Shown here: positions 3,205 through 55,194 of the stretch, in pieces | How the letters are laid out: every line of letters begins with the position of its first letter | How positions within the stretch are numbered: the first letter of the stretch is position 1 | Sequence record: OR525698.1 | From: Escherichia phage vB-Eco-KMB43 | Length of the DNA stretch: 64,000 nt | Reading direction: 5' to 3' (one strand) | Notes under the pieces: generated by a model | Seen by the model: the letters and a program-made list of their open reading frames with translations, nothing else | The model's database searches: none | What the model was told of the DNA's origin: nothing | Translations under genes and position numbers: made by a program

Positions 3205-5028
3205 TTATGATTGCATCCAAATTTTGCGCTGATCTGCATCTTCACTATAGAGCAAATCGAATAGCTCTTTATAGTTTTCCGGTAACGTGATGATCTCCAT
3301 GACAGGATCGTTGATCACGCGATGATAGTCTGATTCTGTGAGCGATGCTAAACCTTTGATATATCGAATGTTGTAACCTTTGATATTATCTCGATCGTTC
3401 TCGAAATCTTCTAGGTCATAATACCATCGAACATCATCACCTTTCTTTGGTTCCGCAATGATAATAGGTGTTTTGATAAACCGGATTCGTCCATCTTCGA
3501 ACAATTCAGGCCAACGAGCAAAGAAAGAGATCAGACTAGGTTTAATAGACCCGATCCCGTCAGTATCAGCGTCGGTCATAATCGCAATATTTTTGTATTG
3601 CATAACTTCCAATGCATCAACACCAAATTGCAAGCCTGTGATCGCCATGATGTTAAAAATTTCGGCGTTCTTAACGATCTTTGCCTCCGGTTGTTCCCAC
3701 GTTGTAAGAGTTTTACCTCGCAACGGGAAACCTCCATGTAAATCTTGATCGCGTACAGAGATCAGATAGTTGATCGCGGAATCACCTTCCGTCAAAAACA
3801 GGGTAGTTTCTGCGTCAGTTCCAATAAGGTTAGCTTTAACGTGTTTTGCCACCTTAGCCCGTTTTGCTGCCTTTGCTGCCTTAGTCGCTGCCGCTTTATC
3901 TGCTGCCTCTTTGCGTGCCAGGACGACAGCAATAATAGGCATGATAATGTTTTCTTTCTTCGCAATGACTTTAGCCAGCTTTTTAAAATCAAGATCAATA
4001 TGACGCTTGATATCACCAGTCGGGTTAGTCAAGCGTTCTTTTGTCTGTGAATCAAAACGAAGGTTAGGCAATTCACGAACAATAAGAATACAGGTCAATC
4101 CAGATTTAACCGCAGCTTTAGTAACATCAACCTTATATTCTTTCTTGATTCGTTTTACAATCTCTTCACAAAGATCATCTGTCACGTAGTCTACGTGTGT
4201 TCCCCCGTTTTTGGTAAACAGACCATTAGCAAAGGATACTGATTTAAAACCTTCTCCCTCGACCGCAGGAACTAGGGCAAGTGAAAAGTTTTTATCTTCA
4301 ATGACAAACGGATCATCATTGTATAGTTTAGCATAATCCTTGAACTTACTAACAATACGTTTACCATTAAACTTAAACGTGATCTTAGGAAATATTACGC
4401 TCAATGATTGCAGACGATCATGAACAATATCTAAAACAGAGTTGTCCATCATATAACCTTCGAAGTGGTCGAAGTCTGGGCAAAATGTAACCTTTGTTCC
4501 CTTCAATTTTGATGGTTTCGATGACCATGTGATATTTTCAGCACCGTTTGTACATTGAACGGTCATTTCTGTTTCGCCGTCACAGGTCACACCAGTAAAC
4601 CAATCGCTAAAGAAATTTGACAACGACGACCCCACACCGTTCATCCCTTGCGTTAATCGATTGGTATCATCAAAGTTAGACCCTGCTTTTGTTCGTGTCC
4701 ATGCGGCTACAGGTTGCGGAATCTGCGTACCCTCTGGGGTAGTAACCATATGTTGAGGAATACCGCGACCGTTGTCTGTTACCGTAACAATATTGTTTTG
4801 GATATCGACGCTAATCACATTGGCAAATTCAAAATTAGTGCGGATCGCCTCGTCTACAGAGTTGTCGATGATCTCATCAATGATTTTAACCAGTCCAGGA
4901 ACGTATGAAATTTTTGTCCACTTACCGAACAGGAAACGTTGATGTTCTTCGTAAGTTGTTGATCCTATATACATTCCTGCACGCTTAAGGACATGTTCAC
5001 GATCAGATAAAATGCGGAACTCACTCAT
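3205..5028 (-). CDS. 39: DNA topoisomerase II large subunit (GyrB-like ATPase), continuous gp39 plus gp60-equivalent
   Basis: 607 aa; N-terminus LKRAGMYIGST and DNGRGIP GHKL motifs; length matches fused 39+60 of non-T4 T-even-like phages. Confidence 0.85.
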   Translation of the reverse strand: MSEFRILSDREHVLKRAGMYIGSTTYEEHQRFLFGKWTKISYVPGLVKIIDEIIDNSVDEAIRTNFEFANVISVDIQNNIVTVTDNGRGIPQHMVTTPEGTQIPQPVAAWTRTKAGSNFDDTNRLTQGMNGVGSSLSNFFSDWFTGVTCDGETEMTVQCTNGAENITWSSKPSKLKGTKVTFCPDFDHFEGYMMDNSVLDIVHDRLQSLSVIFPKITFKFNGKRIVSKFKDYAKLYNDDPFVIEDKNFSLALVPAVEGEGFKSVSFANGLFTKNGGTHVDYVTDDLCEEIVKRIKKEYKVDVTKAAVKSGLTCILIVRELPNLRFDSQTKERLTNPTGDIKRHIDLDFKKLAKVIAKKENIIMPIIAVVLARKEAADKAAATKAAKAAKRAKVAKHVKANLIGTDAETTLFLTEGDSAINYLISVRDQDLHGGFPLRGKTLTTWEQPEAKIVKNAEIFNIMAITGLQFGVDALEVMQYKNIAIMTDADTDGIGSIKPSLISFFARWPELFEDGRIRFIKTPIIIAEPKKGDDVRWYYDLEDFENDRDNIKGYNIRYIKGLASLTESDYHRVINDPVMEIITLPENYKELFDLLYSEDADQRKIWMQS

Positions 5029-49775: not shown

Positions 49776-49978
49776 TTACATTTAGGGCAATGCGGTTCTT
49801 TAATATAATACCCGTCTGTCTTTGGAACACTAACAGGAGCGGTTTTTATATTGTATTCAGTGAAACAACGAAAACAAGTTACGTTTTCTACAGACTGACG
49901 TTTCACCCAATCACCGGAATATAGATCATTTTTATTTGTCATATTCAACCACCACAATGTTAATGTCTGGAGTAGCAA
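49748..49978 (-). CDS. zinc-ribbon protein (76 aa)
   Basis: CFRCF...CPKCKC. Confidence 0.3.
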   Translation of the reverse strand: MLLQTLTLWWLNMTNKNDLYSGDWVKRQSVENVTCFRCFTEYNIKTAPVSVPKTDGYYIKEPHCPKCKCRLYWSHL

Positions 49979-50387
49979 TATTAATGATCTCTTCTACACA
50001 TTCCCACTCAAGGCCACCGATACCGCAACCGATTTTAGGAATATAGAAAGGCTGTATAGCACCTTCAAAAACATCATTGATAGTCTCAAATCCTTTCAGG
50101 ATAGCACCATATTCAGCATTTGGACCCGGTCGGAATTGGGTATAGAGATTCACCCCGCACCAGTTATAACCATTAACTTGATGCGTCCAGACACTAAACC
50201 CACCCAGCTTTTCTACCTTACCGCGAGAAGTTTGCTTGTCAATCTCTAACGCTTGCGGGAACTCTTTCGCGATCTTTGCAGCAATACCAGCGCCCATAGT
50301 ATGAAAACAATTACAACCATGAATTAAATGACCGTTTCCTTGTTTAAACAGGGCGATGAGATCGCCCTTTACAGTATCAATAATCAT
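49932..50387 (-). CDS. macro domain protein, TARG1/DarG-like (ADP-ribose hydrolase family)
   Basis: 151 aa; LIHGCNCFHTMGAGIAAKIAKEFP matches the H-C-x-x-x-M-G-A-G-I-A signature of TARG1-type macro domains. Confidence 0.6.
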   Translation of the reverse strand: MIIDTVKGDLIALFKQGNGHLIHGCNCFHTMGAGIAAKIAKEFPQALEIDKQTSRGKVEKLGGFSVWTHQVNGYNWCGVNLYTQFRPGPNAEYGAILKGFETINDVFEGAIQPFYIPKIGCGIGGLEWECVEEIINIATPDINIVVVEYDK

Positions 50388-50402
50388 AATATAAACCTCT
50401 CA

Positions 50403-50762
50403 TTAGTCACGGGAAGACAACCCAGCCATAAAACGGCTTAACAGTGTGTCGCGATAAGCAAAGCATAATTGCTTATCAGGGGCAGTATCACAAAGGTTGC
50501 GTTTTGTTTTAGCAAAGCTGGCAATACTCAGATCCCATGCTCGATTTTTTCGTTTTTCGTCTCGACCTTGTTTGTATGCTTCGTCGAGTTCAAGTGCGAT
50601 AAAATCACTACACATGTTATCATCATCACAGAAAGTTTTAATGATCTTTTTGTTGATCTCAAATCCTTTGTATTCGAACTTTGGATAAGGGCGCTCATTA
50701 CTAGCAAGCGCACCAGCCGAGAACATCATAGCAATCATAGCAATTATTGTCAACTTTTTCAT
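50403..50762 (-). CDS. secreted/periplasmic protein (119 aa)
   Basis: signal peptide MKKLTIIAMIAMMFSAGALA; several Cys. Confidence 0.4.
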   Translation of the reverse strand: MKKLTIIAMIAMMFSAGALASNERPYPKFEYKGFEINKKIIKTFCDDDNMCSDFIALELDEAYKQGRDEKRKNRAWDLSIASFAKTKRNLCDTAPDKQLCFAYRDTLLSRFMAGLSSRD

Positions 50763-50769
50763 ATATTCC

Positions 50770-51360
50770 TCAATAGCGTTTAGTCTTAAGAATGCCTTTA
50801 CTCTTTAGATGGTTAGCCTTTTTTAGTACGTCATCAGCATAACCTAATCCGGCTTTATAGTTCCATCCAGCATTGTAAGAAGCTAGCGCGAGTCGGATAT
50901 TACCGTTTCGAACATCCAGCCAGTATGCTAACTCATCCATCGCGTAGAATGCAGAAACCTCGCGATTCATGATAAAGTTGATAGTCTGGCGATCACTCAT
51001 TTTAACACCGCGCTTTGCATTTTTCGCTTTCACCGTTTTAAGGTAATTTTGAAATAATCCATAAGCATGATGATTTTTCTTTGGTGCTAAGTTTGCACCC
51101 GCGCTTGATTCTTGCCATGCGATACCCGCCAGGATGTGACCTAAACCCTTTCCGTTATAGCGAATATTCGGATGGTCCTTTTTCAACTTACCGCTTTTCT
51201 CGAATTGCTCGCCGTATTGATAGGCGAAATGTAAATTATCTAGTTGGTGTGCTGTAAAGTTGTCTATCGGCGCTTTTTTGATCGGTGCGCTAGTCGATGC
51301 GTGTGTAGCACCAACGGCTAGTGACAGACTCAATACTATCGCTTTTAGAACTTTTAACAT
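50770..51360 (-). CDS. secreted lytic transglycosylase-like protein (SLT domain)
   Basis: signal peptide; AWQESS, YGLFQ and SYNAG motifs typical of the SLT family. Confidence 0.6.
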   Translation of the reverse strand: MLKVLKAIVLSLSLAVGATHASTSAPIKKAPIDNFTAHQLDNLHFAYQYGEQFEKSGKLKKDHPNIRYNGKGLGHILAGIAWQESSAGANLAPKKNHHAYGLFQNYLKTVKAKNAKRGVKMSDRQTINFIMNREVSAFYAMDELAYWLDVRNGNIRLALASYNAGWNYKAGLGYADDVLKKANHLKSKGILKTKRY

Positions 51361-51446
51361 TAATTTCTCCTGTTTGGCTTAACTTTCTGATTCCATAATA
51401 TAGCCCTATCACCAGAAAGTCAAGCATTATTTTTAACCAATTTCCA

Positions 51447-51869
51447 TTATTGGTCTACCTTCAAAACAACCGCCGACATTTTACCCGCCAGTCGTTTTGG
51501 ATTCTCTATAATCATTCGACAGCATAGACCGTGATACGGCTTGCCGTCTTCAATTAGGTCTACTGTCATCCCGATCCACATGTTACCGTCAGTAATTTCT
51601 AATCGATTAGGTCGGTCTTCCATTTTCAGGAAGTCGAAGATCTCCGGCAAACGAGTTTCTATCTTATTGAATAGTTCCATTGTCTTATGTTCATCGATAT
51701 GACGATCGGTTAGACGGTCGATCATATGCGGACTAAAGCGAATAAAAATATACTCACCATAACCATCATTCAAACACTTTTCTTTGATCTGCGCATTGGT
51801 TTTGCGCATTTCGGTTTCGAAGAATCTACGCAGCTTACTACGGCGAACATGTACGTTAATTGTTTCCAT
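51447..51869 (-). CDS. regB: RegB site-specific endoribonuclease
   Basis: RRSKLRRFFE, RLEITDGNMW, CRMII..RLAGK align with T4 RegB; ATG at 51869. Confidence 0.8.
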   Translation of the reverse strand: METINVHVRRSKLRRFFETEMRKTNAQIKEKCLNDGYGEYIFIRFSPHMIDRLTDRHIDEHKTMELFNKIETRLPEIFDFLKMEDRPNRLEITDGNMWIGMTVDLIEDGKPYHGLCCRMIIENPKRLAGKMSAVVLKVDQ

Positions 51870-51873
51870 TTTA

Positions 51874-52209
51874 TTATCCTTTCTTAAACAAATTGCGAAT
51901 CCAGTATACAAACGGGATTTCTTTAAACTTGAACTTGTCAATAGTTAATTCTTTAGTAGCAAGATGAATACCATAAGCATCATGTGTAACTATATGCCAT
52001 TTTCTATAGTCCAAATGTGAACAACCGTCTGGATCTAGGTTAATAAGAGTTTCTCTCTCACTAGGATTATTTTTCCACAATTTTGTAATAGGATCGCACA
52101 TAATTCGACCTAGCGTACCATGAATAATCTCACAACGGTAAAGTTTTCCAGCAGTGAGATAGGCGCACCCGTCATAGTCGGTATAAACAAACACTTCTTT
52201 AACACTCAT
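51874..52209 (-). CDS. paralog family C member (about 111 aa)
   Basis: DPDGCSHLDYRKWHIV shared with 52270-52706; ATG at 52209 after promoter-hairpin cassette. Confidence 0.4.
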   Translation of the reverse strand: MSVKEVFVYTDYDGCAYLTAGKLYRCEIIHGTLGRIMCDPITKLWKNNPSERETLINLDPDGCSHLDYRKWHIVTHDAYGIHLATKELTIDKFKFKEIPFVYWIRNLFKKG

Positions 52210-52240
52210 TTTAATACTCCTTTGTTGTTTCGATGGGGGT

Positions 52241-52269
52241 ATATTACTACCCCCGATCATGTGTGTCAA
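52241..52269 (-). promoter_or_regulatory. promoter-hairpin cassette (TTGACA; TAATAT in loop of GGGGGTA/TACCCCC stem)
   Basis: same architecture as family at 60748-60776. Confidence 0.45.
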
Positions 52270-52530
52270 CTACTTTTTCAAGATTTTTTTGATTGCATTC
52301 CAAAGACCTTTATTTCCAGGTTGTTTTGGTTCTTCGATCAGTGTCCATGTTCGACCGTCTAAGTGTGCACAATTTTTAAGACAAATAAAAATCTGGTGTC
52401 CCTTATCATCACGGATATAACCACTATTCGCAAATCTTTCATGTGGTGTATATTCATACAGTGTATTAGGTGTAATATACTTGCGGTTACTATAAGGTGT
52501 CATCACATACATCATGGTACTAACTCCCAA
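52270..52530 (-). CDS. paralog family C member (86 aa)
   Basis: YEYTP...GYIRDDKGHQIFICLKNCAHLDGRTWTL. Confidence 0.4.
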   Translation of the reverse strand: MGVSTMMYVMTPYSNRKYITPNTLYEYTPHERFANSGYIRDDKGHQIFICLKNCAHLDGRTWTLIEEPKQPGNKGLWNAIKKILKK

Positions 52531-52706
52531 TTATCACCGCGAAGATGAGAACATCCACCATCAAGAAGGATCGTAATACGATAACCTATATCATCTTTGA
52601 TGTAACCGATTGTCGGTGGATTTTCGTAGTCTCGTGTCGGGGTAAAATCATACATCTTTCCTGGCGTAATATCTTGTCCTTTATTGCTATTGGTATAAAC
52701 TTTCAT
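52512..52706 (-). CDS. paralog family C member (64 aa)
   Basis: YDFTP...GYIKDDIGYRITILLDGGCSHLRGDNWEL. Confidence 0.4.
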   Translation of the reverse strand: MKVYTNSNKGQDITPGKMYDFTPTRDYENPPTIGYIKDDIGYRITILLDGGCSHLRGDNWELVP

Positions 52707-52727: not shown

Positions 52728-53426
52728 CTAACCACGGGTATAGTGTTCCAGAACAACTGTCAGATGAATATATTCTAATAAATCTTTCCAAAAGTCAACA
52801 TCTGGTTCTTCCGGCATACCGTTTTTCTTTGCCTCTTCACGAGCGAGTTTAACACGCTCGTAGAGATCTTTCAATTCTTCCCGCACATTATCAAAGGTTC
52901 TTTCTCCTAACTTACACGCTAAAATAGAAGAACGTCGCGCGAGCGGGAATTGTAGATCACCTGTCTGATAGATTTCAAGTAGCTGATAACCAACACGCAG
53001 AGCATGAGAAAGATCTTTCCAGTTACTGAAATACTTTTCAGATTTGGCTACCTGCTTTTTGAGATAGCCAGACAAACCCCACATACCAACATGATAGAAT
53101 TTATCTCGATGTGTTCGGATGTATTCCCATTCTCTGGAGGATTCAATCAACATGTTACTAGGAGCGTGCACCATGTCAATAGCGCCGATATCGCCTTTAC
53201 ATGCCAGATTGATAAACCGTTTTAGACTGAACATATTAACATCAATATCGTCTTTGGTGTTCTTGATACCTTGACCGCTAGTGCTTTGGTCATAGTGTTC
53301 TTTCATCGATCCTAAGATAATTTCTTTCGCAGTCGGAACAAAGATACCACGATAATCTTTATCGGAATTTTCAGTATCAAGGCCGTATAAGTGAGATCCG
53401 AAGACCATTTTAACCATTGTATGCAT
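52728..53426 (-). CDS. polymerase-beta superfamily nucleotidyltransferase (232 aa)
   Basis: N-terminal FGSHLYGLDTENSDKDYRGIF fits the GS-x(9-13)-DxD minimal NTase signature. Confidence 0.55.
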   Translation of the reverse strand: MHTMVKMVFGSHLYGLDTENSDKDYRGIFVPTAKEIILGSMKEHYDQSTSGQGIKNTKDDIDVNMFSLKRFINLACKGDIGAIDMVHAPSNMLIESSREWEYIRTHRDKFYHVGMWGLSGYLKKQVAKSEKYFSNWKDLSHALRVGYQLLEIYQTGDLQFPLARRSSILACKLGERTFDNVREELKDLYERVKLAREEAKKNGMPEEPDVDFWKDLLEYIHLTVVLEHYTRG

Positions 53427-53469
53427 AATTAAACCCTCAGTTGATTAAGAGATTGCATCATATCATCAT

Positions 53470-53500
53470 AAAACGAAAAAGCCAACCCTTTTCGGATTGG
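53470..53500 (-). terminator. rho-independent terminator after grcA
   Basis: AGCCAATCC-GAAAA-GGGTTGGCT hairpin then TTTTTCGTTTT. Confidence 0.6.
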
Positions 53501-53512
53501 CTTGATGAAAAA

Positions 53513-53929
53513 TTAGAGAGATTCGGTAAAGGTACGAGCGATAACATCACGTTGCTGGTCTGGAGTCAGACTATTGAAGCGCACTGCGTAACCAGAAACG
53601 CGAATTGTAAGCTGCGGGTACTTCTCAGGATGTTCAACAGCGTCCAGCAACATTTCTCGTAACAATACGTTAACATTCAAATGCTGACCACCTTCGACAA
53701 CCGGAGCACCATTATCTACAATCACCGGACGGAAGCTAGTTGTGTGCAGTGCCAGCGAATCGACGTCTTCTGCGGTGATCACATGGTCTTCTGCGAAAGT
53801 TTTACTAACAATTACTTTAGCGCCGATCAGTGCTTTCGGTTCGGATACCAGAATCATAGGCGCGAAGTGTCCACCAATAATAGTACCTTTATGTTCACCT
53901 TTCATGATTTGAATTGCTTTAAATTCCAT
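53513..53929 (-). CDS. grcA: autonomous glycyl radical cofactor, GrcA/YfiD-like
   Basis: C-terminal [11 protein letters not shown]...[39 protein letters not shown] is near-identical to E. coli YfiD. Confidence 0.85.
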
Positions 53930-54064
53930 AATTCACCTCTTATAGATCAGGACGTTCGTCATTAATTTTACCAACCAAAACACCATAGAGTTTATCAGGT
54001 TGGACTTTACGATTCTTATTGATTTTAGCACGGAATCGACGAGCTACGCTATCTTTATTTTTCA

Positions 54065-54556
54065 TTAGTTGATACCTAAGCCAATGAAAATAGGTTGGTC
54101 TTCTACATTACCCATCCCAACACTAAGTCGATTTACTTCTAAAAACTGCAATACGCTGTCAGTAAATCCGCGCATGGTAGTATCTAGGATAAAAATTGTT
54201 TTGTCAAGACTACGACCTCGCCATGTGATCGGATTCAGGAAAGTTCGGATCGACGTACAATCTACATTTGAAATATTTACATTTTCACCGCGACCGCGAT
54301 CTCGGATCGTTTTGGCATGTCCCCGCGTCGTTGAAACGATAAAGACACTATAGCCTTTTCTCGTATAATGGTCATATAACTTGATTGTAGCGTCTGTATG
54401 CCCTGTCTGACGGCCTAAATTGATTGAGACAATGGAATCTAGGTCATCAGCAAAATTGCGTCGCTTACGGCGTTCTATGATGCAATTTACGGCAGAAATA
54501 CACGCAGCATAAATCAAATCTTTACTTTCTAATTCTAAATCAATGTCAATATTCAT
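54065..54556 (-). CDS. hypothetical protein (163 aa)
   Basis: ORF; basic RRKRRN patch; no motif recognised. Confidence 0.4.
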   Translation of the reverse strand: MNIDIDLELESKDLIYAACISAVNCIIERRKRRNFADDLDSIVSINLGRQTGHTDATIKLYDHYTRKGYSVFIVSTTRGHAKTIRDRGRGENVNISNVDCTSIRTFLNPITWRGRSLDKTIFILDTTMRGFTDSVLQFLEVNRLSVGMGNVEDQPIFIGLGIN

Positions 54557-54618: not shown

Positions 54619-55194
54619 TTATTTTGGATCTGGGAAATTCAATAGAGCATATTCTCCATAAAATTTCCTAGCTGCATTATCATAAGCGATTGCAGCTTCG
54701 ATTTCTGTGTCATATTGTCCAAGAACATGTCTTTGTAGGTTGACCATTATACTAGCTCTCCATTTCTTACGCAAATCCTTCCTGTTACACTTACTAACAC
54801 CCTTATACACACTAGAAAACTTTTTAGACTTCTTCTTTCTATTATGTTGATTTTGCGCGTCGGTTGCCTCCCTAAGATTTGGAGGATTGTTATTAGCAGG
54901 ATTACCGTCAATATGATCAATTAATCTAACTTGCGTCCCATGTTCTAGAAACCAAACAACCCTATGCACGAATAAATGAACTCTAGGAAGACCGTCATCT
55001 CTACTATGCCAAAATCGAAGATGACCATCTTTATTTGTTCTGACTTTAACTAAATCGCCGTGTTTATATCTACTCCCTAATGGTCGTCCTTTGATAGCTT
55101 TACTATCGACTCTATAATATAAGATACCCTCTATATGAGCATATCTAAGTTTTATCTCGTTTTGTAGGGATTCATCCCAATATTTAAAAGCCAT
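54619..55194 (-). CDS. HNH homing endonuclease with AP2-like domain
   Basis: HRVVWFLEHG...IDHIDGNPANNNPPNLREAT HNH motif; YKGVS...GQYDTEIEAAIAYDNAARKFYG AP2-like module. Confidence 0.75.
   Translation of the reverse strand: MAFKYWDESLQNEIKLRYAHIEGILYYRVDSKAIKGRPLGSRYKHGDLVKVRTNKDGHLRFWHSRDDGLPRVHLFVHRVVWFLEHGTQVRLIDHIDGNPANNNPPNLREATDAQNQHNRKKKSKKFSSVYKGVSKCNRKDLRKKWRASIMVNLQRHVLGQYDTEIEAAIAYDNAARKFYGEYALLNFPDPK

Follow-up and report, generated by a model that had tools for sequence, protein, structure and literature searches.

The RlaP family of DNA polymerase beta (Pol-beta)-type nucleotidyltransferases (NTases) was named in 2016, and its biochemical activity was described in 2025. Two Pseudomonas members, PfRlaP and PaRlaP, add one or two nucleoside or deoxynucleoside monophosphates to RNA 3'-OH ends (Carruthers, Fatma and Huang, bioRxiv 2025, PMC12776372, an un-reviewed preprint of December 2025). 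Among Escherichia coli macromolecules these enzymes label RNA alone and do not act on DNA or protein; they prefer Mn2+, accept dATP besides NTPs, favor the 3' end of a cleaved-tRNA mimic, and partly restore aminoacylation of a tRNA that is missing one anticodon-loop nucleotide before ligation (PMC12776372). The same preprint reports three strictly conserved aspartates in the family, finds its association with RNA-ligase operons (RtcB or a 5'-P ligase), from which the family takes its name, for only part of the members, and includes NrdC.11 of phage T4, placed in cluster 5 as against cluster 1a for the Pseudomonas enzymes. A comparative study predicts that phage RlaPs replace nucleotides lost to RloC-type nucleases before RNA ligation (PMC7824862). 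A second T4 protein, Y06I (Vs.6), and YfiD (GrcA) of E. coli are activated by the activase of pyruvate formate-lyase (PFL) and restore oxygen-cleaved PFL (Wagner et al. 2001, as cited in PMC8683613). A third, T4 Vs.8, is a hypothetical protein (phrog_1488), and a literature search on vs.8 returned nothing. Here, we analyze the locus at which Escherichia phage vB-Eco-KMB43 (sequence record OR525698.1) carries counterparts of all three, within a window of 64,000 nucleotides, the whole stretch of DNA analyzed, to which all coordinates refer unless another record is named.

The three genes, nrdC.11, vs.6 and vs.8, occupy 1.83 kb on the minus strand, and the list of open reading frames (ORFs) confirms each of them (232, 138 and 163 amino acids [aa], respectively; Table 1). 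As the probable explanation of the locus as a whole, we propose that three accessory genes of an RB49-like (Krischvirus) T4-type phage were inherited independently of one another, are organized in two transcription units and became neighbors by lineage history. The 4-kb stretch around the locus is 98% identical to Krischvirus RB49 and is matched at high coverage by 58 records of RB49/JSE-like coliphages, and the curated records of RB49 and JSE already name the three genes nrdC.11, vs.6 and vs.8, after their T4 counterparts. Direct comparison with T4 supports this orthology for NrdC.11 (E 1e-50), Vs.6 (58% identity, E 4e-47) and Vs.8 (26% identity, E 1e-6, and a shared PHROG). All three are therefore known genes that have been on record in RB49-type genomes for some twenty years. 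A preliminary description of this DNA had recognized a Pol-beta NTase, a GrcA/YfiD-like protein and an uncharacterized 163-aa protein, and these identities proved right (PF10127, PF01228, and no annotated family), as did the ORF coordinates, the FGSHLYGLDTENSDKDY motif and, separating the NTase and GrcA-like genes, a strong terminator hairpin. Its layout was correct in placing the 163-aa ORF upstream of the GrcA-like gene and missed a conserved 41-aa ORF (orf41) lying between them; its view that no function could be assigned was outdated, the genes being named and Vs.6/Y06I having been biochemically tested. What we establish here is which genes these are, the families to which they belong, the conservation of catalytic residues, their folds, the terminator and the absence of a conserved linkage; all biochemical activities and biological roles at the locus are inferred.

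Comparison across phages argues for independent inheritance. In T4, nrdC.11 lies 7 kb from vs.6, vs.7 and vs.8, with about twenty genes between, and in Slopekvirus, Lazarusvirus and Tulanevirus local tblastn gave no match to Vs.6 or Vs.8 up to 9 kb from the NTase. A divergent T4-like contig (L076) carries vs.8, vs.6, an HNH gene, a small ORF and regB in this order, with no RlaP. The phage-wide distributions also differ, with 1,619 records for the NTase (Mycobacterium, Gordonia and Bacillus phages among them), 1,580 for Vs.6-type genes (T5-like and jumbo phages included) and 1,010 for T4-type Vs.8. Though the three genes share one strand and the same order in 58 of 58 Krischvirus records and in a 57%-identical metagenomic relative (L078), the Krischvirus records are mutually ~95-99% identical and count as one observation. 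The adjacency of NTase and GrcA-like genes, on which the preliminary description had founded a compact accessory module, is confined to the RB49-like clade, where a conserved terminator separates the two and different homing endonuclease genes have been inserted; the comparative data largely refute that module. The T4 orthologs fall inside laboratory-viable deletions, nrdC.11-mobD.3 and vs.3-denV (PMC9825161), as expected for conditional accessory genes.

The separation of vs.6 from nrdC.11 is visible in the 86-nucleotide (nt) gap between them, where a hairpin with a 10-bp stem and a 5-nt loop is followed by a T-run. Its folding energy of -15.6 kcal/mol lies well below that of dinucleotide shuffles (z = -4.0), ARNOLD annotates it as a terminator in the near-identical phage G5211, and it is retained directly after vs.6 in both JSE and JK32. 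On its upstream side the genes are tightly packed: the ATG of orf41 overlaps the vs.8 stop codon (TAATG), and orf41 ends 10 nt before vs.6. We infer a first unit of vs.8, orf41 and vs.6, closed by the terminator, and a second that starts with nrdC.11; that these units are drawn from sequence signals counts against the firmness of this part of our explanation. In JSE (L001, 4442-4972) and JK32 (L002, 2947-3540) the stretch from the terminator to the NTase ribosome-binding site holds a homing endonuclease gene, a different one in each phage, and L078 has an HNH/NUMOD4 gene at the same vs.6/nrdC.11 junction (3951-4547). This junction is a recurrent landing site for homing endonucleases, a modest new point.

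NrdC.11 belongs to the RlaP family. It scores 53.6 bits against PF10127 (RlaP, "RNA repair pathway DNA polymerase beta family"; gathering cut-off 23) in a collinear match of residues 7-191 to profile positions 24-198 of 249. The segment FGSHLYGLDTENSDKDYRGIF begins at residue 9 of the 232-aa protein, and G10, S11, D22, D24, D60, D62 and D84 are invariant in an alignment with 42 homologs. The NTase motif is not fortuitous, a concern that the preliminary description had raised for profile searches to settle, because this full Pol-beta signature is invariant in all 42. An AlphaFold2 model (predicted local distance difference test 91.8, predicted template modeling [TM] score 0.87) has an N-terminal alpha/beta NTase domain with strands 2-9, 24-30, 44-48 and 62-67, followed by helices of which the last spans 210-230. 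The C-terminal part of the model, residues ~98-230, is a helical domain, giving a predicted two-domain layout like that of the RlaP preprint, so that the "no obvious partner domain" of the preliminary description does not hold.

Other NTase classes found little correspondence. The closest solved folds in the PDB (Foldseek) are the two-domain NTases ANT(4') and HalB, at TM scores of about 0.38-0.48 and 9-17% identity, and PDB sequence searches with NrdC.11 and its 42-sequence profile returned nothing meaningful. No PADLOC NTase model of CD-NTase or defense type matches NrdC.11 (the only PADLOC match is an 11-bit CARF), RlaP is its sole Pfam family, and neither PolyA_pol (PF01743) nor NTP_transf_2 (PF01909), which would point to a CCA-adding enzyme or MNT, is reported for it at E <=0.1; in T4 NrdC.11, PF01909 is a sub-threshold match of 13.6 bits. 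Of the classes that the preliminary description had listed for profile and structure-based classification, CD-NTase, CCA-adding enzyme and MNT are unsupported, aminoglycoside NTase corresponds in general fold only (ANT, TM ~0.4), and the classification comes out as RlaP/PF10127.

Like T4 NrdC.11 and the RlaP family, the 232-aa protein carries the same GS...DxD...D set and an N-terminal NTase domain followed by a C-terminal helical domain, and it scores above the gathering threshold. It differs from the 336-aa T4 protein in lacking a ~104-aa insert in the helical domain, before which, at residue 134, the T4 Pfam match ends. Bacillaceae relatives of ~225 aa, found in a scan of genome contigs, are collinear with the 232-aa form. 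Because the RB49-type protein is collinear with the Pfam profile and with these relatives and has no T4 insert, its architecture is the minimal, canonical-length RlaP form, a modest new point. Many NrdC.11 homologs in GenBank and UniRef are mislabelled "thioredoxin," "glutaredoxin" or even "HNH homing endonuclease," although PF10127 is carried by all 120 homologs among the matches listed; the thioredoxin and glutaredoxin labels have apparently spread from the gene name nrdC.11.

By analogy with the two bacterial RlaPs, nucleotide addition to RNA 3'-OH ends is most likely the activity of NrdC.11. With D22, D24 and D62 and a divalent metal (Mn2+ is preferred by the bacterial enzymes), it would add one or two nucleotides to such ends without a template. 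A probable role, on the same analogy, is to put back tRNA nucleotides excised by RloC-type anticodon nucleases of the host, after which the phage PseT kinase/phosphatase and RnlA ligase could reseal a functional tRNA; RB49 encodes pseT and rnlA, ~75 kb from nrdC.11. Among the functions that the preliminary description had listed as candidates, RNA 3' end repair is thus backed by family evidence (PF10127, PMC12776372) and nucleotide signaling of the CD-NTase kind is unsupported. Several points weigh against this proposal. The characterized RlaPs are Pseudomonas proteins of another cluster (1a as against 5), so that an activity of the phage cluster is argued by analogy, and with PfRlaP's crystal structure not among the PDB matches the structural comparison runs indirectly, via ANT and HalB. 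Furthermore, nrdC.11 does not sit in an RtcB/RNA-ligase operon, its neighbors being vs.6, small ORFs and regB, and no RNA ligase adjoins the NTase gene in the 7 other phages inspected, T4, Mycobacterium and Bacillus phages included. In small temperate mycobacteriophages, the RlaP gene is found near the integrase/immunity region.

As a separate observation, RlaP-type NTase genes of unrelated phages (loci L003 15436-16446, L007, L008 and L011-L013) have thioredoxin, glutaredoxin or ribonucleotide reductase genes, rather than RNA ligase genes, in their vicinity, for example the nrdC cluster in T4, NrdH in two mycobacteriophages and the alpha and beta subunits of ribonucleotide reductase in a Bacillus phage. 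This proximity could be chance or a link to nucleotide metabolism.

Alternatively, NrdC.11 could be a counter-defense or signaling enzyme that synthesizes oligonucleotides, as HalB does with oligo-dA, or that tags or blocks host RNA or DNA ends against defense. In favor of this, one of the nearest solved folds is that of HalB (9dbj, TM 0.46, Foldseek E 8e-5), the bacterial RlaPs use dATP besides NTPs (PMC12776372), and the gene is located in a hyperplastic accessory region, is dispensable in T4 in the laboratory (PMC9825161) and adjoins the immunity/integration cassette of temperate mycobacteriophages. HalB and ANT(4') indeed share the two-domain architecture of Pol-beta NTase and helical domain with NrdC.11; however, a TM score below 0.5 with 13-17% identity to HalB reflects a generic two-domain NTase fold only. 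There is no sequence-level similarity to HalB, ANT(4'), CD-NTases or any PADLOC defense model, and the acceptors of the two solved enzymes are of other kinds (a tyrosine-primed dA chain for HalB, aminoglycosides for ANT). Given the clear Pfam assignment to RlaP, and that characterized RlaPs stop after one or two nucleotides and are inactive on DNA and protein (PMC12776372), we regard a counter-defense function as unlikely and retain RNA 3'-end repair as the preferred proposal for NrdC.11.

Vs.6 is a standalone Gly_radical domain protein of 138 aa (PF01228, E 1.5e-16, 61.3 bits against a cut-off of 22.2), in keeping with the ~14 kDa standalone form of GrcA/YfiD. It matches E. coli GrcA (6owr) at E 5.8e-33 and the PflB C terminus at E 5.5e-27, and its residues 77-138 correspond almost exactly to PflB 698-759 and GrcA 66-127, with the RVSGY motif at residues 110-114. 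In these respects, a small standalone Gly_radical domain whose last ~60 residues hardly differ from those of GrcA and PflB, it resembles both T4 Y06I and E. coli GrcA/YfiD, whereas it is longer than either (138 aa against 120 in T4 and 127 in E. coli), with a longer and divergent N-terminal half. Its 133.8 bits against TIGR04365, the NCBIfam GrcA equivalog, fall below the cut-off of 170 because of that N-terminal divergence from E. coli GrcA, which weighs against a strict GrcA assignment; judged by sequence (58% identity), Vs.6 is best filed with a phage Y06I/Vs.6 subgroup.

By analogy with Y06I, Vs.6 would be a GrcA/YfiD-type spare part for host pyruvate formate-lyase. The host activase PflA would place the radical on Gly113 of Vs.6, as reasoned from T4 Y06I, and Vs.6 would then dock on a pyruvate formate-lyase whose glycyl-radical C terminus oxygen has cut off. 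The rescued enzyme could resume fermentative production of acetyl-CoA and formate in the infected, oxygen-stressed cell.

Vs.8 has no sequence match in Pfam, NCBIfam or the PDB, and an exhaustive single-sequence search recovered 5 relatives among 1.84 billion representatives. T4-type Vs.8 was reached from the Krischvirus type only through a bridging alignment or profile. The two share a BLASTP match (E 1e-6), a PHROG, the same position upstream of vs.6, and the invariant residues G48, R49, G52, R104, R113, G114 and D125; unlike the 219-aa T4 protein, the 163-aa Krischvirus protein has no N-terminal extension, and it carries GRxxGHT and ILDT in place of GRQSGK[ST] and IIDEP. The structural model of Vs.8 shows a strand, P-loop and helix core on a parallel sheet that matches the fold of known ATPase cores. 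Where T4-type proteins keep to the Walker A (GGRQSGK[ST]) and Walker B (YIIDEP) consensus, all Krischvirus-type proteins, down to 31% identity, have GRxxGHT and ILDT or ILDD, with His53 conserved. The Vs.8 loop, GRQTGHT, thus departs from the canonical Walker A GxxxxGK[ST], and in its Walker B a nearly invariant Asp125 is followed by Thr (ILDT) as against the catalytic Glu of the T4 type (IIDEP). The model supports Vs.8 as a single RecA-like P-loop domain that stands alone, and in this clade histidine replaces the Walker A lysine, together a small new detail.

That His53 is conserved speaks for a function of Vs.8 that was altered but retained, rather than for decay. On sequence grounds, Krischvirus Vs.8 most likely binds nucleotide or nucleic acid without efficient hydrolysis, because its Walker A lysine is histidine and its Walker B glutamate is threonine. 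The proteins to which its fold may be compared, SF1/SF2 helicases in their RecA-like domain 1 and the terminase gp17 in its N-terminal ATPase, differ from the Vs.8 type, a single domain of 160-180 aa that has no second RecA domain, nuclease or DNA-binding module, and all sequence similarity to them is sub-threshold. An alignment of Vs.8 with the Walker A region of T4 gp17 (hhalign, 46 columns, 47% probability) hints at a terminase-ATPase origin, and T4-type members have weak, sub-threshold Pfam matches to AAA_14 (20/24), Terminase_6N (18/24) and AAA_30 (12/24). We keep such an origin as a lead and did not adopt it, given that its evidence consists of this 46-column, 47%-probability match and sub-threshold Pfam matches only.

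The Vs.8 fold (model m5ac3e5012059) also occurs in many uncharacterized phage proteins of 150-175 aa at TM scores of 0.5-0.65 in the BFVD library, including proteins of PhiPA3, EL, phiRSL1, Acinetobacter 133, Flavobacterium Fpv3 and Stenotrophomonas Mendera, and judging from the models these look like a widespread unannotated class. Separately, tblastn matches of T4-type vs.8 break into two or three pieces in many Tequatrovirus genomes, where the gene is often annotated as two ORFs. An old T4 record gives several alternative vs.8 starts (L003, 24254-24913), and the N-terminal extension of T4-type Vs.8 may have another start or contain a frameshift.

Could Vs.8 and Vs.6 form a functional pair, in which the P-loop protein assists, loads or regulates the spare part while the NTase is an unrelated neighbor? 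Indeed, vs.8 is followed by vs.6, with 0-2 small ORFs in between, in T4, SonariX, Krischvirus, L078 and L076, the Vs.8 of the last being 31% identical, and in the phage studied here vs.8, orf41 and vs.6 are tightly packed, with overlapping stop and start codons and a common terminator. However, T4-like genomes are broadly syntenic, so that conserved order is weak evidence, and what lies between the two genes varies, being vs.7 in T4 and orf41 here, with no intervening ORF in L076. No Vs.6 lies within 3 kb of the Vs.8 of STML-198, in T5-like phages Vs.6 stands by itself in a group of tRNA genes, and T4 Y06I worked in vitro with PFL and its activase only (PMC8683613). General T4-type synteny adequately explains the order of vs.8 and vs.6, and we hold a functional pair to be improbable. 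Slightly more doubtful is its most specific form, in which Vs.8-type mini P-loop proteins, represented here by the clade with histidine for the Walker A lysine, would be dedicated nucleotide-binding adaptors that load or protect Vs.6 on oxygen-cleaved pyruvate formate-lyase.

Lower still stands the reading in which the NTase, GrcA-like and 163-aa proteins act together as one compact module: the compactness, single strand and shared order of the genes in Krischvirus and L078 speak for it, but the scattered linkage and differing distributions set out above, and the conserved terminator before a junction that tolerates two or three different homing endonuclease genes, make it highly improbable. 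That the substrate of the NTase is a small molecule or protein, with the enzyme acting as an aminoglycoside/lincosamide-type nucleotidyltransferase or an AMPylase, is barely credible, since its top Foldseek PDB matches (the ANT(4') kanamycin nucleotidyltransferases, with 6un8 at E 2.8e-5, then AAD(9) and LinB) stand at TM 0.38-0.42 and 9-11% identity, general fold only and with no sequence matches, E. coli proteins and DNA are not substrates of the tested RlaPs (PMC12776372), and an antibiotic-modifying enzyme is of no obvious use to a lytic phage.

Table 1. Features of the nrdC.11-vs.6-vs.8 locus, in window coordinates
Feature	Position	Strand	Basis
HNH + AP2 homing endonuclease gene upstream of vs.8	54619..55194	-	PF13392 E 2.6e-10, AP2; varies between isolates
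vs.8, predicted 163-aa standalone RecA-like P-loop domain protein	54065..54556	-	Fold model, alignments
Vs.8 P-loop codons 48-54, GRQTGHT, Walker-A-like, His53 for T4-type Lys	54395..54415	-	Alignments; between model strand 42-45 and helix 53-66
Vs.8 Asp125 codon, Walker-B-like, end of strand 120-125 (IFILDT; T4-type YIIDEP)	54182..54184	-	Alignment, model
orf41, 41-aa basic ORF in T4 vs.7 position	53940..54065	-	phrog_13848 E 5e-29; conserved in JSE/JK32; 55% identity in L078
vs.6, GrcA/YfiD-type autonomous glycyl radical cofactor, T4 Y06I ortholog	53513..53929	-	PF01228, 6owr, T4 Vs.6
Vs.6 Gly113 codon in RVSGY, predicted glycyl radical site	53591..53593	-	Aligned to GrcA/PflB RVSGYAV
Intrinsic terminator hairpin closing vs.8-orf41-vs.6 unit	53479..53503	-	Stem + T-run, folding energy, G5211 annotation
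Spacer between terminator and nrdC.11	53427..53478	-	Promoter-like TTGGCT-17-TGnTATGAT; GAGGG ribosome-binding site
nrdC.11, 232-aa RlaP-family (PF10127) Pol-beta nucleotidyltransferase, short canonical form	52728..53426	-	PF10127; phrog_388 E 2e-79; T4 NrdC.11 E 1e-50; AlphaFold2 model
NrdC.11 G10-D24 codons, GS...DxD nucleotidyltransferase signature	53355..53399	-	G10, S11, D22, D24 invariant, 42 homologs
NrdC.11 D60-D62 codons, third catalytic aspartate on strand 62-67	53241..53249	-	D60, D62 invariant; AlphaFold2 strand
Pair of small paralogous ORFs (64, 86 aa) immediately after nrdC.11	52270..52706	-	phrog_6261/15978; before next promoter/hairpin

The surroundings of the locus hold further features, all on the minus strand. 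Upstream, the HNH + AP2 gene is flanked by an M15 endolysin gene and vs.8; it is missing from the original RB49 record and present in JSE and G5211, and its presence or absence probably explains the 84%-coverage class of matches to the 4-kb stretch. Between nrdC.11 and regB lie three small paralogous ORFs (52512-52706, 64 aa; 52270-52530, 86 aa; 51874-52209, 111 aa; phrog_6261/15978) that share a ...C[SA]HL...W motif. By local tblastn they occur in the RB49-like lineage only, with no matches in T4, Slopekvirus, Lazarusvirus or Tulanevirus, and as travelling companions of the NTase they were rejected on this result. Just upstream of the 111-aa ORF and regB, a strong early-promoter-like sequence (TTGACA-17-TAATAT) overlaps a GGGGGTA...TACCCCC hairpin at 52236-52269, which ARNOLD annotates as a terminator in G5211. 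Downstream of the NTase unit, 49932-51941 holds an RNA- and tRNA-related run of regB (an mRNA endoribonuclease, PF10715 E 2.6e-48), vs.1, vs (a valyl-tRNA synthetase modifier) and tk.4 (a macro/A1pp domain), in an order that follows T4 synteny. ARAGORN found no tRNA or transfer-messenger RNA genes across the window.

Here, we provide comparative evidence that removes a false "module" from the candidates among T4-type accessory regions, and a fold assignment for Vs.8, a family previously without annotation anywhere. If the doubtful adaptor role of Vs.8 were true, it would explain how the order of vs.8 and vs.6 has survived in five divergent T4-like lineages within a hyperplastic region, and would be the first function for a widespread class of uncharacterized phage proteins of 150-175 aa. 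The RB49-type NrdC.11, with its short form, would offer a convenient construct for assaying a phage RlaP against RloC-type anticodon nucleases.

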